From a virus (taxonomy: Duplodnaviria; Heunggongvirae; Uroviricota; Caudoviricetes), in IMG/VR virus record IMGVR_UViG_2609459769_000015: DNA of 7,330 nucleotides. One strand, written 5' to 3'. The position numbers were made by a program, and so were the translations under genes. The notes beneath the pieces were generated by a model. The model worked only from the letters and a program-made list of their open reading frames with translations, did no database searches and was not told where the DNA came from. Shown here piece after piece: positions 641-7,330 of this stretch. Numbering within the stretch: position 1 is the stretch's first letter; the number at the start of each line of letters is the position of its first letter.

Positions 641-934
641 TTAGTCCGATTCACGCTTTTGTAGAATCGTTCCCAGAATGCTATACAGCTCATTAGCCTG
701 TTGCTCCATCATTGAGACGGAGGCTATACGGTGCAAAGTGATTTCAGGAGGTGGCACACCTCCATCTTCTTGCTGTGGAGGAAAAACATAAGATTTAATA
801 AAAAAGTTGAAGCATATGAACTCTCCCGCACTCGAACTGTATTTGCAGGCATCTGAATAATCGGAAAAATAATCATTATAGATTTCCGCATTTTCAATCA
901 TTTTTCGATTTCTCGTCGTTACATGATTGTCCAT
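641..934 (-). CDS. Hypothetical protein (97 aa), divergently oriented from com-mom
   Basis: ATG (reverse complement of 932-934) preceded by Shine-Dalgarno AAGAGG with 5-nt spacer; no family recognised by eye. Confidence 0.5.
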   Translation of the reverse strand: MDNHVTTRNRKMIENAEIYNDYFSDYSDACKYSSSAGEFICFNFFIKSYVFPPQQEDGGVPPPEITLHRIASVSMMEQQANELYSILGTILQKRESD

Positions 935-1147: not shown

Positions 1148-1190
1148 GAGTGATAAAGATATCAACAACAAAGCAGGAGGTTATGCGGCC

Positions 1191-1391
1191 ATGTATCGAA
1201 ACATACGGTGCCGACATTGTAACAAGCTACTGGCACGAGCCAGCTTCAGTTATCTGGAAGTTAAATGTCCGCGCTGTAAAACCCTCAATCAAATCACATC
1301 TCAGAGCGCCACAGAGCACCCCACATACACAAGGAAATCCTGTCGTGGGGAACAGAAAGCAAGTTACATCCCGTATCATCAGCACGCCTGA
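1191..1391 (+). CDS. com: Com-like zinc-finger translational activator (66 aa), Mu Com family
   Basis: ATG 1191 preceded by AGGAGG (1175-1180); Cys4 pattern CRHC...CPRC ([30 protein letters not shown]) closely resembles phage Mu Com; 3' end overlaps the start of the mom-like ORF as in Mu. Confidence 0.85.
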
Positions 1392-2082
1392 ACTTATTCA
1401 CTATAACGACAATATCGTCGGTTATGGCTCCCGTGAGTTACGGGTTGAGACAATAAGTTGCTGGCTGGCCCGGCTGGTCGTCGTCAATAAACATTACAGC
1501 CATCGTTTCGTAAATAATTCCTACCTTCATCTGGGCATATTTTCAGAACGGGAGCTGGTTGGCGTAATGCAATGGGGTTATGCCCTTAATCCAAACAATG
1601 GTGCACGCGTCGTAACTGGCACGCAGAACCGCGAATATATGGAGCTTAACCGGTTATGGCTGCATGACTGTATGCCGAGAAACTCCGAATCAAGGGCAAT
1701 CAGTTACGCGCTCAAACTAATCAGACAACTTTATCCGCAGGTGCAGTGGGTTCAGTCGTTTGCAGATGAGCGTTGTGGCTGTCTTGGTGTCGTGTACCAG
1801 GCAAGCAATTTTGATTATGTAGGCAGTCATGAAACAACATTCTATGAACTTGATGGCGAGTGGTATCACGAGATTTGCAAGAATGCAATCAAACGAGGAG
1901 GACAGCGAGGTGAACATCTGCGGGCTAATATCGACAGAGCCAGTGTTCATAAATTCCGTCAGTTTCGTTACATCCGGTTTCTGGACAAGAGAGCCAGAAA
2001 ACGCCTTAACACAAAGCTATTCAAAGTCCAGCCTTACCCAAAACCACAAACAGTTAAAACTGGTTTGAAAGAGAGTGAATGA
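1345..2082 (+). CDS. mom: Mom-like DNA modification protein (acyltransferase-fold adenine-modifying enzyme), about 245 aa if initiated at GTG 1345
   Basis: Long ORF overlapping com out of frame; motifs KHYSH, NSESR, SFAD recalled from Mu Mom; candidate start GTG 1345 with AAGGAAA (1331-1337) upstream; start position is uncertain (the ORF is open from 1150). Confidence 0.75.
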
Positions 2083-2117: not shown

Positions 2118-2158
2118 GCGCCGATTTAGTATCAAATAAGTTGCGTATCGGCGTTTTT
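2118..2158. terminator. Candidate bidirectional intrinsic terminator between convergent mom and dam: stem CGCCGAT / ATCGGCG (2119-2125 / 2147-2153), T5 on plus strand, T-rich run on minus strand
   Basis: Inverted repeat with 21-nt loop, followed by TTTTT (2154-2158) and preceded by AAAAGAAAA (2109-2117) which gives a U-tract for the opposite strand; the loop is long, hence moderate confidence. Confidence 0.4.
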
Positions 2159-2193
2159 CAGCGGTATCAAATGAAATGCAAATCGGTATCAAA
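2128..2193. repeat. Three direct copies of GTATCAAA (2129, 2164, 2186), two within an exact 10-bp repeat CGGTATCAAA (2162-2171 and 2184-2193, 22 bp apart)
   Basis: Read directly from sequence in the mom-dam intergenic region; function unknown. Confidence 0.4.
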
Positions 2194-2244
2194 AAAATCG
2201 CCGCGCTATATTAAAGCCGCTGCAGTTGTTCATATCAGCATGGC

Positions 2245-3102
2245 TCATGCACGCACTCCGTACACGGCAGAACTATCCACGCCACGCGAAGGATCAAATC
2301 CCACCCAGCAGCGCGCCCCAGAAACAGCGATGATTTCTGTTGCAGATTTACTCTCGCCAGCCGACACGCCGATGCTGCGTTTTGCCTTGATGTAGTGGTG
2401 AGTGAAATTTCGATACAGCGAACGGATCAGGGATGTGTCACTGTTAGAAACAATGACTGGATGACCTTCTGATGATCGATATTCAAGAACAGATGCCAGG
2501 TGATACTGGTCATCTTCAGTGAAGCCGTTAGTGTGATAGCCGGAAAACGTACCGTCATAAGGCGGATCGCAATACACCACATCCCCCACCTGCAGCATCG
2601 CCAGCGTTTCATCAAAGCTGGCGCAGATAAACGTTGCTTGCTGGGCTTTCTCTGCAAATGCGCGAATTTCTTTTTCAGGGAAATACGGATTTTTATAATT
2701 ACCGTATGGAATGTTGAAATGCCCGCTCTTGTTATAACGACATAACCCACGGTAACCATGACGATTGAGATACAGGAAATATACCGCTTTCATGAAATCA
2801 GTAATTTCAGTGGAGTAATTAAACTCCTGCCTTATGTTGTAATAAGCCAACTCCCTGTTTGCTTCCTCAAATAAAGCTCTGGCACGAGATATAAACGCCT
2901 CGCAATCAGCAGCAACCTTTTTATAGAGGTTGATTAAATCAGGATTAATATCCGCAACAAGATAGCTGGGGTAATCCGTCTCCATCATCACAGCACAGGA
3001 ACCCGCGAAAGGTTCAACCAGTCGCGGGCCAGCAGGAAGGTGTTTTTTCAGTTCGGACATTACGGCGGTTTTATTTCCCGCCCATTTCAGGATGGTGCTC
3101 AT
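2245..3102 (-). CDS. dam: DNA adenine methyltransferase, Dam family (D12-class N6-adenine MTase), 285 aa
   Basis: Strong resemblance to E. coli Dam along the length: [15 protein letters not shown] (AdoMet motif), [15 protein letters not shown], catalytic DPPY; start ATG at 3100-3102 overlaps the upstream stop in an ATGA junction. Confidence 0.9.
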
Positions 3103-3326
3103 ACAGCACCCCCGTTGTAATGTTTGCCTTTCAGCTCTGCGATTTCCTGACAGGTAATGCAAAGCTGCACACCCGGAATGGCACGGCGGCGTGCTGGCGG
3201 AATTGGCGCTTCACACTCAACGCAAAGCACGCGGGACACGCCCGGCGTTTTGGCACGGGCAGCACGGATATGGCGCTGGCGTTCTTCTTCAACGCGCTGC
3301 TGTACGAGATCCATTGCATCAGCCAT
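3099..3326 (-). CDS. TraR/DksA-family C4 zinc-finger protein (75 aa)
   Basis: CVEC...(17 aa)...CITC four-cysteine motif and size typical of phage TraR-like proteins; start overlaps the upstream gene stop (TAATG). Confidence 0.8.
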   Translation of the reverse strand: MADAMDLVQQRVEEERQRHIRAARAKTPGVSRVLCVECEAPIPPARRRAIPGVQLCITCQEIAELKGKHYNGGAV

Positions 3327-3559
3327 TAGTGGATCTCCTGCGCTTCGTTCTGGATTGCTTCAGCAGTCACACGCAGCAGTTCTGCCGCTTCCACGTGGTT
3401 TAGCTGACGGGATGAGATATGACACGCCAGGCTATCAAGGCGAGCTGCCATTGCTTCAGCCCTTGCCCGGCGTTCTTCCAGACGAGCCTCTGTCAGTAAA
3501 ATATTAAGCCCTGCGTCATCCGGTCCGGTTTTAGTCGTGAGGGTTTCAATATTACGCAT
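3326..3559 (-). CDS. Hypothetical early protein (77 aa), Ala/Arg/Glu-rich helical
   Basis: ATG (reverse complement of 3557-3559) preceded by AGGAG with 8-nt spacer; translationally coupled to the TraR-like gene; resembles small conserved proteins of P2-like early operons. Confidence 0.6.
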   Translation of the reverse strand: MRNIETLTTKTGPDDAGLNILLTEARLEERRARAEAMAARLDSLACHISSRQLNHVEAAELLRVTAEAIQNEAQEIH

Positions 3560-3626
3560 AATCAATTCTCCTGAATTTAGATAAAGGGATGCCCGGCGGG
3601 TTTACGCCATTAATTTCATTAGTTGG

Positions 3627-3968
3627 TTAATTCGGCATGGTTAGCCGTCTGGGAAATAAGCTCACCACTGCACGAAAATGATTCATTGCTTTAATCAGCT
3701 CCCGCTTTTCGTCAGTGGTCAGCTCATTAATGCTGATGCTATGACGTTCAGCTGGAATTTTTGCCATAAAGAATATGGCAGCCAGTGCCCGTTTATTTTG
3801 TTCATTATTGATATCCCGTGGATCACGCATATCTTTAATAAACCGCTCAAGCTCTGACTCAATATTCAGGCCAAAAACTTTCGCCCTTAACTCCGCAATG
3901 TGATTAAGTCCATTCAGGCGTTCACCGGGGCTTAATGGAACAGTTGCTGCAGCGCCATTAATTGCCAT
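3627..3968 (-). CDS. Hypothetical early protein (113 aa)
   Basis: ATG (reverse complement of 3966-3968) with G-rich RBS; ordinary protein-like composition; no family recognised by eye. Confidence 0.55.
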   Translation of the reverse strand: MAINGAAATVPLSPGERLNGLNHIAELRAKVFGLNIESELERFIKDMRDPRDINNEQNKRALAAIFFMAKIPAERHSISINELTTDEKRELIKAMNHFRAVVSLFPRRLTMPN

Positions 3969-3990
3969 ACTTCATATCCCCCAAACGCAG

Positions 3991-4215
3991 CTATCGTTCT
4001 TTGTTCTTACGGTAACGCTCAAGAGGAGATACATTTTTTCGTATCGTCTCTTTAACCTGCTCTCCCCGTAAAAACGTCCCATCCTTTAACGCGAAAAAGT
4101 AACTGCCATCGCCCGACAATGACGGATAGCAACAGAGCAAATCATCTTCAGGTACTGAATAACTCTCCCCTCTGTAACGAAACTGATAAACCACTTCACT
4201 TTCTGCCGCATACAT
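3991..4215 (-). CDS. Hypothetical early protein (74 aa)
   Basis: ATG (reverse complement of 4213-4215) preceded by GGAGAAAG; natural-looking sequence; overlaps the 3' extension of the upstream ORF in another frame. Confidence 0.6.
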   Translation of the reverse strand: MYAAESEVVYQFRYRGESYSVPEDDLLCCYPSLSGDGSYFFALKDGTFLRGEQVKETIRKNVSPLERYRKNKER

Positions 4216-4382
4216 TTGGACTTTCTCCGTTTCCTCGTGGTCAATTCAGACAGCAATTCATCTTGTGAATGACATGGATGCCAGCGTTTTCCATCCTCAC
4301 CCGTGATCCAGCCGTGACCGTAGTGCATTGCCGGGCTTTGTTTTACCAGCAGCGATGCAAATGATGGTTCTTTCGTCAGCAT
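4086..4382 (-). CDS. Hypothetical early protein downstream of cII (position of 186 fil); 98 aa as it stands, but the last ~42 aa look like out-of-frame read-through
   Basis: ATG (reverse complement of 4380-4382) preceded by GAGGTG; N-terminal 56 aa look protein-like, C-terminal part (Cys/Arg/Trp-rich) overlaps the 3991..4215 gene for 130 nt. Confidence 0.4.
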   Translation of the reverse strand: MLTKEPSFASLLVKQSPAMHYGHGWITGEDGKRWHPCHSQDELLSELTTRKRRKSKCMRQKVKWFISFVTEGRVIQYLKMICSVAIRHCRAMAVTFSR

Positions 4383-4389
4383 AAGCACC

Positions 4390-4899
4390 TCACAGCAAAC
4401 CGAATGAAGCACCGAGGCCAGTCACGGTATCAACTGCACTCGCCATCGCAGGGTTAGCCTGTAAACGGGCCTGCAATGAAACAGCAGCCAACGCCATCAG
4501 TCGTGTTACAGAGTTAATGCTGCTGATAGCATCACGACGACCTGCACTGGTTTTTACATCGCCAGATACCGCACCTGCAGCAACACGCCCGATCTCTGCG
4601 GTTGCACTCATGACGTAATGTGGCAGTTTCTCTTTTGCCACCTCATTAATTGGTACGCATGGCAGGCAGTGAATCTGTGCCAGAAAACCATCTACCAACG
4701 TTGAATCTTCAGTCAGATCGGTAAGCAGCCAGATTTCTGGTGCGGTTAATAAATGAGGTTGAGCTGGGTTCAGCTTGTTCCGCAGAATCTGCACATTCAT
4801 GCCCGCACGTTCTGCCAGTTGCACCAGATTGTGGCGCAGTGCGAATGCACGACAGGCTTCATCAAAATGTGGATGTTTGGAAACTTGGTAATCAAACAT
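4390..4899 (-). CDS. cII: Phage 186-type CII lysogeny-establishment activator (169 aa)
   Basis: Sequence [19 protein letters not shown]...[28 protein letters not shown] closely matches what I recall of phage 186 CII; ATG at 4897-4899 (reverse) is preferred over the TTG at 4906-4908 given by the ORF track. Confidence 0.85.
4873..4899. promoter_or_regulatory. Candidate CII operator: inverted 7-bp half-sites ATGTTTG (4873-4879) and CAAACAT (4893-4899), 20 bp centre-to-centre, overlapping the cII start codon; implies a rightward CII-dependent establishment promoter reading antisense through apl toward cI
   Basis: Half-sites read directly; the sequence and two-helical-turn spacing match my recollection of the 186 CII binding site at pE; weak -10-like ACTTAT at 4915-4920. 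Confidence 0.5.
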
Positions 4900-4963
4900 G
4901 GTTTTCAACTCCGAACTTATCGCAAAATCGAACTCAGCGTCTTATTGCGAAAATAGACGTCTA

Positions 4964-5167
4964 TTAAGCAGACAAAGCATCAACAGTCAGAGCAGCCAGG
5001 TTAATCATTACCTTTTCACGTTTTTTGTCTTTACGAAGACGATGACGAGGTAGTCGGCCATCAGCCAACATGTCGTTAATCGTATCAATAGAAAGGCCAG
5101 TCAGTTCGCTATAACGTTCGATTGTGACATGTGGTGTATTCAGAGTAATTGAAATGTTAGGTGTCAT
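4964..5167 (-). CDS. apl: Apl/Cox-family excisionase and transcriptional regulator (67 aa), first gene of the lytic operon
   Basis: HTH segment [25 protein letters not shown] resembles P2 Cox / 186 Apl; position immediately opposite cI across the switch region. Confidence 0.65.
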
Positions 5168-5312
5168 AAGGCAACATTCCTTCTAGATATGGCTTGTGGC
5201 GAGCCGTTGTTTGTCGTGATTAGTAGTGAAGGCTCCAAAAGAACACTTCTGGTTCAACTTTAAGATCGCTTTTGGAATCTGTCAACGAATTTTGGATTTC
5301 TTTGGAGGACTT
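5168..5312. promoter_or_regulatory. Lysis-lysogeny switch region. Candidate leftward lytic promoter (pR-like): -35 TTGACA (minus strand, 5280-5285), 17-bp spacer, -10 TAAAGT (5257-5262). Weaker candidate rightward promoter (pL-like): -35 GTGTCA 5161-5166, -10 TAGATA 5184-5189
   Basis: Hexamers read from sequence; face-to-face arrangement is that known for 186/P2; helically phased TTTGGA repeats at 5271, 5291, 5301 and TGTGGA at 5311 overlap the -35. Confidence 0.45.
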
Positions 5313-5882
5313 GTGGATTTCAATAGCGGCGGTAAGAAAGCCATAGAACGTTTAGTTGAAGCATATGGGTTCGGTACCCGTCAGGCTCTCTGTGATCATT
5401 TAGGTGTTTCTAAGAGCACCATGGCAACGCGCTATATGCGTGATATTTTTCCAGCAGATTGGGTAATCCAGTGCGCCCTTGAAACGGGCACCTCGCTTAA
5501 TTGGCTAACAACAGGGCATGGTTCAAAGCAAGCATCAGCAAATACAAATACTATAGAAGTAGAAAAATATTTATTGTCTGATGGAGCATTGCAGAAAGAC
5601 GGTTTTTATATTTTTGATAAGGGATTTCTACCCTCTACGTTTAAAAAACCTTTTGTCATCACAGATAACAATTCTGAATTTATTTGTGATAAAGAATTTG
5701 ATGATATACGTGATGGTAAATGGGTAATAAGTATTGATGGCGAAATAACGATCCGTGACATTACTCGTTTACCCGGTGGAAGAATCTTCGTCGAGGGTGG
5801 AAACAGAGCCTTCGAATGCAAGATAGAAGACATTGAAATAATTGGTAAAATTATAAGTTTAACAGTCAAGTATGTTAAATAG
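5313..5882 (+). CDS. cI: Phage 186-type CI immunity repressor (189 aa from GTG 5313; the ORF is open from GTG 5226)
   Basis: N-terminal HTH region ERLVEAYGF...CALETGTSLNWLTTGHG matches the 186 CI repressor family; GGAGG (5304-5308) precedes GTG 5313; the C-terminal half is AT-rich. Confidence 0.85.
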   Translation: MDFNSGGKKAIERLVEAYGFGTRQALCDHLGVSKSTMATRYMRDIFPADWVIQCALETGTSLNWLTTGHGSKQASANTNTIEVEKYLLSDGALQKDGFYIFDKGFLPSTFKKPFVITDNNSEFICDKEFDDIRDGKWVISIDGEITIRDITRLPGGRIFVEGGNRAFECKIEDIEIIGKIISLTVKYVK

Positions 5883-5897
5883 TACCGGGAGGAAACT

Positions 5898-6089
5898 ATG
5901 CTTGGTAAGGTATTTTTTGTGGTTTTGTCATGTTCTTTGTTATTAAACCCACTAACTACCTATGCTAGAAATTATCCCTGCTCAGGGAAAAAGGGAGGTG
6001 TTTCTCACTGTACCTCAGATGGCAAATTCGTTTGCAATGATGGAACTATTAGTAAATCCAAAAAAATCTGTACTAAAAACTCACGATAA
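5898..6089 (+). CDS. Small secreted Cys-rich protein (63 aa): signal peptide then a ~40-aa basic mature peptide with 4 Cys; moron between cI and int
   Basis: ATG 5898 with strong GGGAGG RBS (5-nt spacer) 16 bp after the cI stop; hydrophobic N-terminus [18 protein letters not shown]; AT-rich relative to flanks. Confidence 0.6.
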
Positions 6090-6224
6090 CTTTTGCTTTT
6101 ATATCTGCGTCTAAAATAAAAATGAGCCGCAGGTTAACCGCAAAAGTTACATGCTCACATAGCAAAAAGAATAGCCAACTTCATGATGGCTTCAGTGAGA
6201 TGTATGGTCGTAGGATTTCATACA

Positions 6225-6253
6225 TTGACACTGGTTATACATACAGTAAAAAT
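6225..6253 (+). promoter_or_regulatory. Near-consensus sigma70 promoter upstream of int (-35 TTGACA 6225-6230; -10 TAAAAA/AAAAAT 6247-6253) whose spacer is a LexA-box-like palindrome CTGGTTATACATACAG (6231-6246)
   Basis: Read from sequence; 13 of 16 positions match the CTGT-N8-ACAG LexA consensus (CTGG half-site as in ruvA box), with a perfect ACAGTA distal half. Confidence 0.4.
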
Positions 6254-6277
6254 GCTCTCTACTGGAGGGCATTTTTT

Positions 6278-7330
6278 ATGGCAGTACGAAAACTCACCAC
6301 AGGGAAATGGCTTTGCGAATGTTACCCCGCCGGACGTAGTGGGCGTCGTGTGCGTAAACAATTCGCCACCAAAGGCGAAGCTCTGGCTTTTGAGCGCCAC
6401 ACGATGGAAGAAACCGAAGCAAAGCCCTGGCTGGGTGAATCAGTGGATCGTCGAACACTGAAAGACGTAGTTGAGCTATGGTTCAAACTACATGGTAAAT
6501 CTCTGACAGCTGGGCAGCATGTCTATGACAAATTGCTGTTGATGGTTGACGCTCTGGGTAATCCTCTTGCAACCGATCTCACCTCTAAAATGTTTGCCCA
6601 CTATCGAGATAAACGCCTGACAGGCGAGATCTACTTCAGCGAGAAATGGAAGAAAGGAGCAAGCCCGGTCACCATTAACCTGGAGCAAAGCTATCTAAGT
6701 AGTGTTTTTAGCGAACTATCCCGTCTGGGCGAATGGTCGTATCCGAACCCACTGGAGAACATGCGAAAATTCACCATCGCAGAAAAAGAGATGGCATGGC
6801 TTACCCATGAGCAGATTGTTGAATTGCTGGCTGATTGCAAACGTCAGGACCCAATTCTGGCACTGGTAGTTAAGATATGCTTAAGCACAGGCGCACGCTG
6901 GCGTGAAGCCGTAAATCTTACCCGCTCACAGGTGACCAAATACCGAATTACCTTTGTCAGAACGAAGGGGAAGAAAAACAGAAGCATCCCTATCAGTAAA
7001 GAGCTTTACGAAGAGATCATGGCGCTTGATGGGTTCAATTTCTTTACAGACTACTATTTTCAATTTTTATCCGTGATGGAAAAAACGTCTATCGTGCTCC
7101 CTCGCGGTCAACTCACACACGTTCTGCGCCATACGTTTGCGGCGCACTTCATGATGTCGGGTGGAAACATTCTCGCCTTACAAAAAATTCTCGGACACCA
7201 CGATATAAAAATGACTATGCGTTACGCACATCTGGCACCAGATCATCTGGAAACGGCGCTCCGTTTCAATCCTCTGGCAACGCTGCCAAGTGGCGACAAA
7301 GTGGCGGCAGCGGTTGGCATTACCCCGTAA
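6278..7330 (+). CDS. int: Tyrosine site-specific integrase, P2/186 family (350 aa)
   Basis: N-terminus MAVRKLTTGKW...RKQFATKGEALAFERHT parallels P2 Int; catalytic region LSTGARWREA, HVLRHTFAAHF, MRYAHL with active-site Tyr; ATG 6278 preceded by GGAGGG (6265-6270); stop is the last codon of the window. Confidence 0.9.
   Translation: MAVRKLTTGKWLCECYPAGRSGRRVRKQFATKGEALAFERHTMEETEAKPWLGESVDRRTLKDVVELWFKLHGKSLTAGQHVYDKLLLMVDALGNPLATDLTSKMFAHYRDKRLTGEIYFSEKWKKGASPVTINLEQSYLSSVFSELSRLGEWSYPNPLENMRKFTIAEKEMAWLTHEQIVELLADCKRQDPILALVVKICLSTGARWREAVNLTRSQVTKYRITFVRTKGKKNRSIPISKELYEEIMALDGFNFFTDYYFQFLSVMEKTSIVLPRGQLTHVLRHTFAAHFMMSGGNILALQKILGHHDIKMTMRYAHLAPDHLETALRFNPLATLPSGDKVAAAVGITP

Follow-up and report, generated by a model that had tools for sequence, protein, structure and literature searches.

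A probable Com-relieved hairpin at the mom start codon of a Mu-like Escherichia coli prophage

The DNA analyzed here (the window, a stretch of 7,330 nt) carries a short inverted repeat inside the end of a com gene, and one arm of that repeat contains a candidate start codon for a mom gene. Where does translation of Mom begin at this locus, and is it controlled as in phage Mu? Mom family members are GNAT-fold enzymes of adenine N6-carbamoylmethyl/methylcarbamoyl modification, Mu Com is an RNA-binding translational activator, and the action of Com on the translation-inhibition hairpin (TIS) at mom is textbook knowledge for Mu. We find that positions 1304 to 1350 of the window are very probably the com-mom translational control region of a Mu-like (Sp18-type) transposable E. 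coli prophage, orthologous to the Com site and TIS of Mu.

The com-mom locus and the start of Mom

A Mu-like transposable prophage contributes its right end to the window, positions 1 to 2210. E. coli 1283 and other strains carry the rest, from 2211 to 7330, as uninterrupted prophage DNA with 100% identity, and in strain DLI.5a the same Mu-like element stops at the same base, which there lies within ypdB. Between the window and O157:H7 strains the com-mom segment has 95% identity; of 5,426 complete E. coli genomes searched, 233 carry it. The DNA from 2211 to 7330 is a separate prophage with integrase, CI, CII, and Dam methylase genes, and the Mu-like phage inserted 35 bp past the 3' end of the dam gene of this resident prophage (2245 to 3162, minus strand). 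The features of the right end are as follows.

641 to 934 (minus strand), 1 to 183, and 219 to 473: small ORFs of the prophage right end, annotated by PGAP on an identical copy as hypothetical protein, DUF1378, and DUF826
1123 to 1147, no strand assigned: perfect 9-bp palindrome AATCGATCG-N7-CGATCGATT with two GATC sites, about 45 to 65 nt upstream of the com ATG
1175 to 1180, plus strand: Shine-Dalgarno sequence (SD) of com, AGGAGG, 10 nt ahead of ATG 1191, read directly from the sequence
1191 to 1391, plus strand: com, coding for a 66-aa zinc-ribbon homologue of the translational activator
1345 to 2082, plus strand: mom, coding for a predicted 245-aa adenine-modifying enzyme of the Mom family
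2119 to 2160, plus strand: hairpin CGCCGA(23 nt)TCGGCG followed by TTTTT, between the mom stop codon and the prophage end, kept in the related cassette L002
2110 to 2210, plus strand: prophage right end, with the junction with the flanking prophage at 2210/2211

The com product matches Pfam PF10122 (Zn_ribbon_Com; E = 7.5e-13) and is 45% identical to Mu Com, and all four of its zinc-binding cysteines (4/4) are invariant in our alignment of Com proteins (A2). The coordinates of com agree with those of the PGAP CDS WP_014334043.1. PGAP names this product, in the window (1191 to 1391) as well as in L099 (1692 to 1892), “Com family DNA-binding transcriptional regulator,” which appears to be a misnomer because Mu Com acts on RNA, at translation. 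A simple promoter scan of positions 950 to 2250 returned no sigma-70 consensus promoter, a result that fits an activator-dependent promoter and is uninformative alone. The Mu promoter Pmom is Dam and activator dependent, and clusters of GATC sites occur upstream of com in Mu, L002, and phage Chuche as well. By analogy with Pmom, the palindrome at 1123 to 1147 may be a candidate Dam/OxyR- or activator-sensitive control region of the com-mom promoter. At the other end of the operon, the hairpin at 2119 to 2160 is likely the com-mom terminator, embedded in the transposon end; a simple terminator scan did not pick it up because its loop is longer than 8 nt.

The mom product matches 202/202 profile positions of Pfam PF25680 (E = 7.8e-78), with the domain beginning at residue 31, and it is 78% identical to Mu Mom over 233 aa when both proteins are counted from GTG. 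By sequence match, the regulated gene of the window is a true Mom, matched over its full length. GTG 1345, which the first-pass annotation took to be the real mom start, is in frame with the ORF ending at 2082 and lies 46 nt ahead of the last base of com. Between 1150 and 1700 the mom frame offers GTG 1150, ATG 1183, GTG 1345, and ATG 1567, and then later start codons. GTG 1150 has no SD, ATG 1183 has an SD (the AGGAGG of com) just 2 to 3 nt away, GTG 1345 has the SD AAGGA at a spacing of 9 nt, and a start at ATG 1567 would cost 44 residues of the Pfam Mom domain. Judged on these features, GTG 1345 is the sole in-frame start that pairs a well-spaced SD with an intact Mom domain, and the PGAP/RefSeq CDS WP_000528246.1 already begins Mom there. 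A protein read from this GTG would begin (M)GNRKQVTS.

The strongest evidence that this GTG is the start is that homology among cassettes ends 10 nt after it. The identity between the window and L002, whose gene in the position of mom codes for a C5 cytosine methyltransferase (PF00145), is 90% or higher over the 200 nt upstream of GTG and the first 10 nt from GTG (GTGGGGAACA), and beyond that it is at the random level. The same break was found in an independent cassette lineage, between the Mom locus L048 and the C5 methyltransferase (MTase) locus L004, and is likewise seen against an N6 MTase (L056). Because cassette homology ends at this point, three unrelated enzymes have the N-terminus MGN... 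in common and nothing beyond it.

That Mom starts elsewhere, either at ATG 1183 (a long form running over all of com) or at ATG 1567, we regard as highly improbable. Such a start is suggested by the mom frame, which is open from 1150, 65 codons upstream of GTG, and spans all of com, by the AGGAGG that precedes ATG 1183, and by RefSeq, which has Mu Mom begin at an upstream ATG. Yet the frame upstream of GTG is closed in the near-identical L002 cassette, and by that comparison its openness in the window is probably accidental; the SD of ATG 1183 has a spacing of 2 to 3 nt only; ATG 1567 would lose those 44 domain residues; PGAP uses GTG; and the cassette junction directly follows GTG. As to Mu itself, PMC6483171 gives GUG as the start, and the protein mass fits the GTG form. 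Purified Mu Mom has a reported mass of 27050 Da, with the N-terminal Met removed (PMC7261163), and the calculated values are 27042 Da for the GTG form minus Met and 28146 Da for the RefSeq ATG form. The reported mass fits the former and not the latter, which indicates that Mu Mom starts at GTG rather than at the RefSeq ATG. The assignment of the mom start to GTG 1345 is thus borne out by SD spacing, by PGAP, by the retained Mom domain, and by the cassette junction just after GTG, and for annotation we consider the Mom start fixed there.

The same question touches two other records. The RefSeq ATG of Mu Mom (L001, NC_000929, 428 to 430; 241 aa) is in the 5' arm of the Com-binding hairpin, and the GTG (458 to 460; 231 aa) lies 10 codons downstream of it. 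In phage Chuche (L003, PP925824), the com-linked N6 methyltransferase is annotated from ATG 1630, in the hairpin loop and 2 nt after GAGGAG; translation more likely begins at the conserved GTG 1636, which lies in the 3' arm with the SD 8 nt ahead of it. Both annotated proteins probably include extra codons at their start, 10 in RefSeq Mu Mom and 2 in the Chuche methyltransferase.

The hairpin at the mom start and its conservation

The inverted repeat consists of three parts.

1319 to 1324, plus strand: 5' arm of the translation-inhibition hairpin, CCCCAC (columns 19 to 24 of alignment A1, 100% paired in 28 sequences)
1325 to 1344, plus strand: hairpin loop ATACACAAGGAAATCCTGTC, 20 nt, with the mom SD AAGGAAA at 1331 to 1337
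1345 to 1350, plus strand: 3' arm, GTGGGG, of which GTG 1345 to 1347 is the mom start codon

The first-pass annotation had described a CCCCAC/GTGGGG stem holding the mom GTG, placed within the end of com, with AAGGAAA in a 20-nt loop, and this description agrees with what we found. CCCCAC is the exact reverse complement of GTGGGG, the GTG is in the mom frame, the entire hairpin falls within the 66-codon com ORF (1191 to 1391), and AAGGAAA is present in the loop, though its GG is partly paired in the minimum free energy (MFE) structure. Refolding of the region, which had been proposed as a check, returned the stem as the MFE structure in the 91-nt context, as it did in contexts of 32, 51, and 65 nt. 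In the MFE structure the GG of the SD (G1333-G) is paired with C1339-C1340, and a weak inner helix, A1329-C-A/U1341-G-U, is also predicted. In these models the loop leaves only part of the mom SD unpaired.

Taken alone, the stem at 1319 to 1350 is statistically unremarkable and its thermodynamic signal is weak. The isolated hairpin has a predicted stability of -11.5 kcal/mol (z = -2.07), and z is only -0.5 when 91 nt are folded. The whole window has 83 perfect 6-bp stems whose loops measure 3 to 25 nt, against 46 +/- 9 in shuffles, and 11 with at least 5 G/C, against 2.3 expected. When the flanks were shuffled, the GUG was still fully paired in 59% of shuffles. With z ranging from -0.5 to -2.1 by context and the GUG paired in most flank shuffles, single-sequence thermodynamics was dropped as stand-alone evidence. 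What sets the hairpin above chance is its position together with its conservation and homology, not its thermodynamics. A search of Rfam gave no family over the hairpin region.

To assess conservation, we aligned the com 3' regions of 28 distinct enterobacterial sequences (A1). Each of the six TIS pairs (6/6) is formed in 28/28 sequences, and five of the pairs are invariant. The sixth (column 19 = C1319, column 50 = G1350) is C-G in 25 sequences and U-A in 3 sequences of the Mu clade. Two scans of a viral-contig collection were aimed at alternative combinations of this pair, and 34 distinct com-linked sequences had C/G in 23 cases, U/A in 11, and C/A or U/G in none (0 each). The scan for the C19/A50 mismatch gave 27 matches, none of which was com linked, and these were set aside as chance matches. 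The loop is 11, 14, 17, or 20 nt long among relatives and is variable in sequence. We regard the covariation as supportive and qualitative, since by the alignment it amounts to a single evolutionary event between two clades, and the five other pairs are invariant and hence uninformative. Within the enteric group the arms are invariant, and sequences of the distant lineages could not be aligned.

Invariant arms could also be expected if the inverted repeat had no regulatory role and followed from the coding demands of the overlapping Com (“...EHPT...RG...”) and Mom (“MG...”) frames. One or the other frame constrains every base in the 3' arm, covariation is minimal because five of the six pairs never vary, and similar stems are common in the window. 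Coding constraint nevertheless fails to explain the arms, because all four bases occur immediately before GTG, so that the com codon reads CGT, TGT, GGT, or AGT (R/C/G/S), while the GT of the start stays fixed, and because C1322 is invariant. The latter base, in the 5' arm and outside mom, is the third position of a four-fold degenerate com proline codon, and the neighboring com third positions 1313, 1319, and 1325 are variable. Moreover, the stem region codes for the C-terminal tail of Com, which is disordered and dispensable for RNA binding (PMC6483171). The sixth pair changes jointly on both sides in 34/34 sequences, and distant Com lineages sequester the start by helices of unrelated sequence. 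On this evidence we consider a coding by-product very unlikely, and a conserved regulatory hairpin is the reading that we carry forward.

Com recognition and opening of the hairpin

A putative Com site adjoins the hairpin on its 5' side.

1304 to 1320, plus strand: Com recognition motif GAGCGCCACAGAGCACC, in perfect agreement with the bipartite Com SELEX motif GAGNNCC(N)3GAGNNCC

The SELEX motif was reported as NGAGNNCC(N)2-3GAGNNCCNN, with CC(N)2-3GAG in a loop closed by C-G (PMC6483171). The match at 1304 to 1320 is the only one in the 7.3-kb window, where 0.01 would be expected by chance; it abuts the stem on its 5' side, as in Mu, and is identical to the Mu 19-mer at 13/19 positions. Motif bases at synonymous com positions are conserved. 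A homologue of the Mu Com hairpin H1 (of the 3- to 4-bp type) can be drawn with the pairs G1306-C1319, G1308-C1317, and C1309-G1316, a C1307-A1318 mismatch, and the loop CACAGA. In the window, H1 has a marginal predicted stability of -1.7 kcal/mol, and the predicted fold is in another register.

The likeness to sequestration of the mom start in Mu, which the first-pass annotation had pointed out, is confirmed at the level of alignment columns. The Mu sequence (L001) reads AUGC[CUGCGA]GCAU-CCCAC-GGAGAAACAUU-GUGGG-A, with GTG 458 in the mom frame, and in A1 the stem of the window occupies the same columns as the Mu TIS CCCAC/GTGGG (L001, 442 to 446/458 to 462), which has GGAG in its loop; the Com site is adjacent. 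The two loci share gene order, the overlap of the com 3' end with the mom start, and location at the prophage right end. In both, the core stem is CCCAC/GUGGG, its 3' arm holds the GUG and its loop the SD, and the CC(N)3GAG Com motif lies immediately 5' of it; the proteins are homologous (Com, 45%; Mom, 78%). They differ in the loop (20 nt in the window, 11 nt in Mu), the SD (AAGGA versus GGAG), the closing pair (C-G versus U-A), and the predicted stability of the hairpin (-11.5 versus -8.7 kcal/mol). The Com hairpin of the window is the weaker, with its C-A mismatch, whereas its motif is closer to the bipartite SELEX consensus than is the site of Mu. The window hairpin is a correct rediscovery of the known Mu mechanism in a Mu-like E. 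coli prophage and would not surprise a Mu specialist. From these sequence comparisons, the Mu Com/TIS switch appears to have been kept essentially unchanged in Sp18-type Mu-like prophages.

In Mu, the TIS stem contains the GUG start of Mom, and the accepted model is a Com-induced opening that exposes the start signals (PMC6483171). The Com hairpin and TIS of Mu go back to work by Wulczyn & Kahmann (1991) and Hattman (1991/1999), as summarized in PMC6483171. Carried over to the window, the model would run as follows. On the com-mom mRNA, the mom GUG (1345) would lie in the 3' arm of a 6-bp G+C-rich hairpin with the SD in the loop, partly paired, and with GUG and SD sequestered, 30S subunits would be unable to initiate on mom. 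Com, translated from the same mRNA, would bind CC(N)3GAG in the small hairpin abutting the TIS (1304 to 1320), and binding would open the TIS or prevent its formation, permitting initiation at GUG with AAGGA. The toxic DNA-modifying enzyme would thus be made only after Com accumulates, late in lytic growth. Com binding and Com-dependent opening in this phage are inferred from Mu. We are nonetheless considerably confident that Mom starts at GTG 1345 and that the element is a translation-inhibition hairpin relieved by Com.

Forming the Com hairpin would not by itself be expected to expose the start. With H1 forced in silico, the mean P(unpaired) over positions -13 to +3 is 0.37, against 0.36 when the RNA is free. 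TIS opening must therefore be protein driven, because forced H1 leaves the initiation region unexposed. A purely thermodynamic switch is therefore not supported for the Mu/window lineage, the forced Com hairpin exposing the start in neither the window nor Mu.

The fact that stabilizing the Com hairpin in silico leaves the start hidden could also be taken to favor translational coupling in cis, in which the TIS is opened mainly by ribosomes translating com and no binding of Com protein is needed. The TIS lies wholly inside the com frame, and com stops 44 nt after GTG, so every ribosome translating com must unwind it. Against this stand the perfect and unique Com motif directly against the stem, the conservation of motif bases at synonymous com positions, and the example of Mu, whose Com protein binds this RNA and, in the accepted model, induces its opening (PMC6483171). 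Furthermore, in some lineages, L188 and L204 among them, the control region is located wholly downstream of the com stop codon, where coupling cannot act. We consider coupling as the main route improbable and favor opening by Com.

Com-type control regions ahead of other modification genes

Mom is not the only enzyme found behind com. Homologues of com and putative Com sites precede non-Mom methyltransferases in FluMu (hin1523), Pnm1 (nma1821), and B3 (ORF48) (PMC3299994). The window shares with these loci a com homologue and a putative Com site 5' of a DNA-modification gene in the mom position, and differs from them in that its enzyme is Mom and not a methyltransferase. In more distant com-linked MTase lineages the sequestering helix differs in sequence from that of the window and often shares nucleotides with the Com hairpin. 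In L002 the cassette type of the window is itself joined to a C5 MTase, and Chuche has a related type joined to an N6 MTase. It appears that the com-plus-hairpin switch travels as a unit ahead of different DNA-modification genes. A structural analogy with HIV Tat-TAR has been noted (PMC6483171); both systems have a small RNA-binding protein and a hairpin-loop motif and activate expression, but the target of Tat-TAR is transcription elongation and the two are not related by evolution, so that the likeness is one of analogy only.

Com loci were gathered from genomes and viral contigs, and 24 lineage representatives with a Mom, C5, N6, or Dam-like gene downstream were compared. The distant lineages were found by scans seeded with L178 and L009; a rescan with the Com alignment mostly gave the same close relatives. 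In 16/24 representatives all three bases of the start codon are paired in the MFE structure, against 8.0 +/- 2.1 in shuffled sets, 0/200 of which reach 16, and the summed MFE of the 24 is -457.6 kcal/mol, against -337.9 +/- 13.1 kcal/mol in shuffles; the representatives are not fully independent, and their sequestering helices are unrelated in sequence.

In 12/24 representatives, part of the Com hairpin also belongs to the helix in which the SD or start is hidden, and because these nucleotides are shared, the Com hairpin and the start-hiding helix are mutually exclusive. In L181, AUGC[CGGCGA]GCAU competes with GAGCAUCC...GGAUGCUC; in L188, GCAC[CAUGA]GUGC competes with CAUGAGUGC...GCACUCAUG; and the corresponding helix of L189 is GCCCAUGA...UCAUGGGC. 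RNAs of the L178/L181 type have GCAU in common between the two helices. The Mu/window type has a single shared nucleotide, C1319, which covaries with both of its possible partners: with column 6 (G1306; G-C to A-U) and with column 50 (G1350; C-G to U-A). How Com binding melts the adjacent TIS is described as unresolved in PMC6483171. The shared nucleotides of the modeled structures suggest, as a hypothesis, that the switch originated in strand exchange. In its widest form, which we put forward tentatively and think somewhat more likely wrong than right, this hypothesis holds that the Com site, the start hairpin, and the first 3 to 4 codons (MGN...) make up a portable translational ON-switch grafted onto unrelated toxic DNA-modifying enzymes (Mom, C5, N6, and Dam-like). 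That switch would ancestrally have worked by protein-stabilized strand exchange, with the overlap shrunk to C1319 in the Mu/window type. If true, strand exchange would be a concrete answer to how Com opens the TIS.

Two further arrangements were observed among the distant loci. The Acinetobacter-type Com loci L261 to L298 have two tandem Com-type hairpins, and in them the SD is sequestered by a conserved helix of 8 to 9 bp, CUUACCUG(A)/(U)CAGGUAAG. This helix also encloses the second hairpin, and what it encloses varies in length and content. In L008 (1661 to 1750; a Moraxellaceae MAG) and L338 (from about 1266 onward; a viral contig), a conserved small ORF (MNPAKPQKPLGKNGYKYRSQFGV and MAKERKVPGKNGFKYAPKFGV, respectively) lies downstream of com, ahead of an ORF of 246 to 273 aa (…SHRC(T/S)DF(S/D)S(Y/F)RAA…VKSLFNVESG…). 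The locus of this longer ORF may be another Com-controlled modification system.
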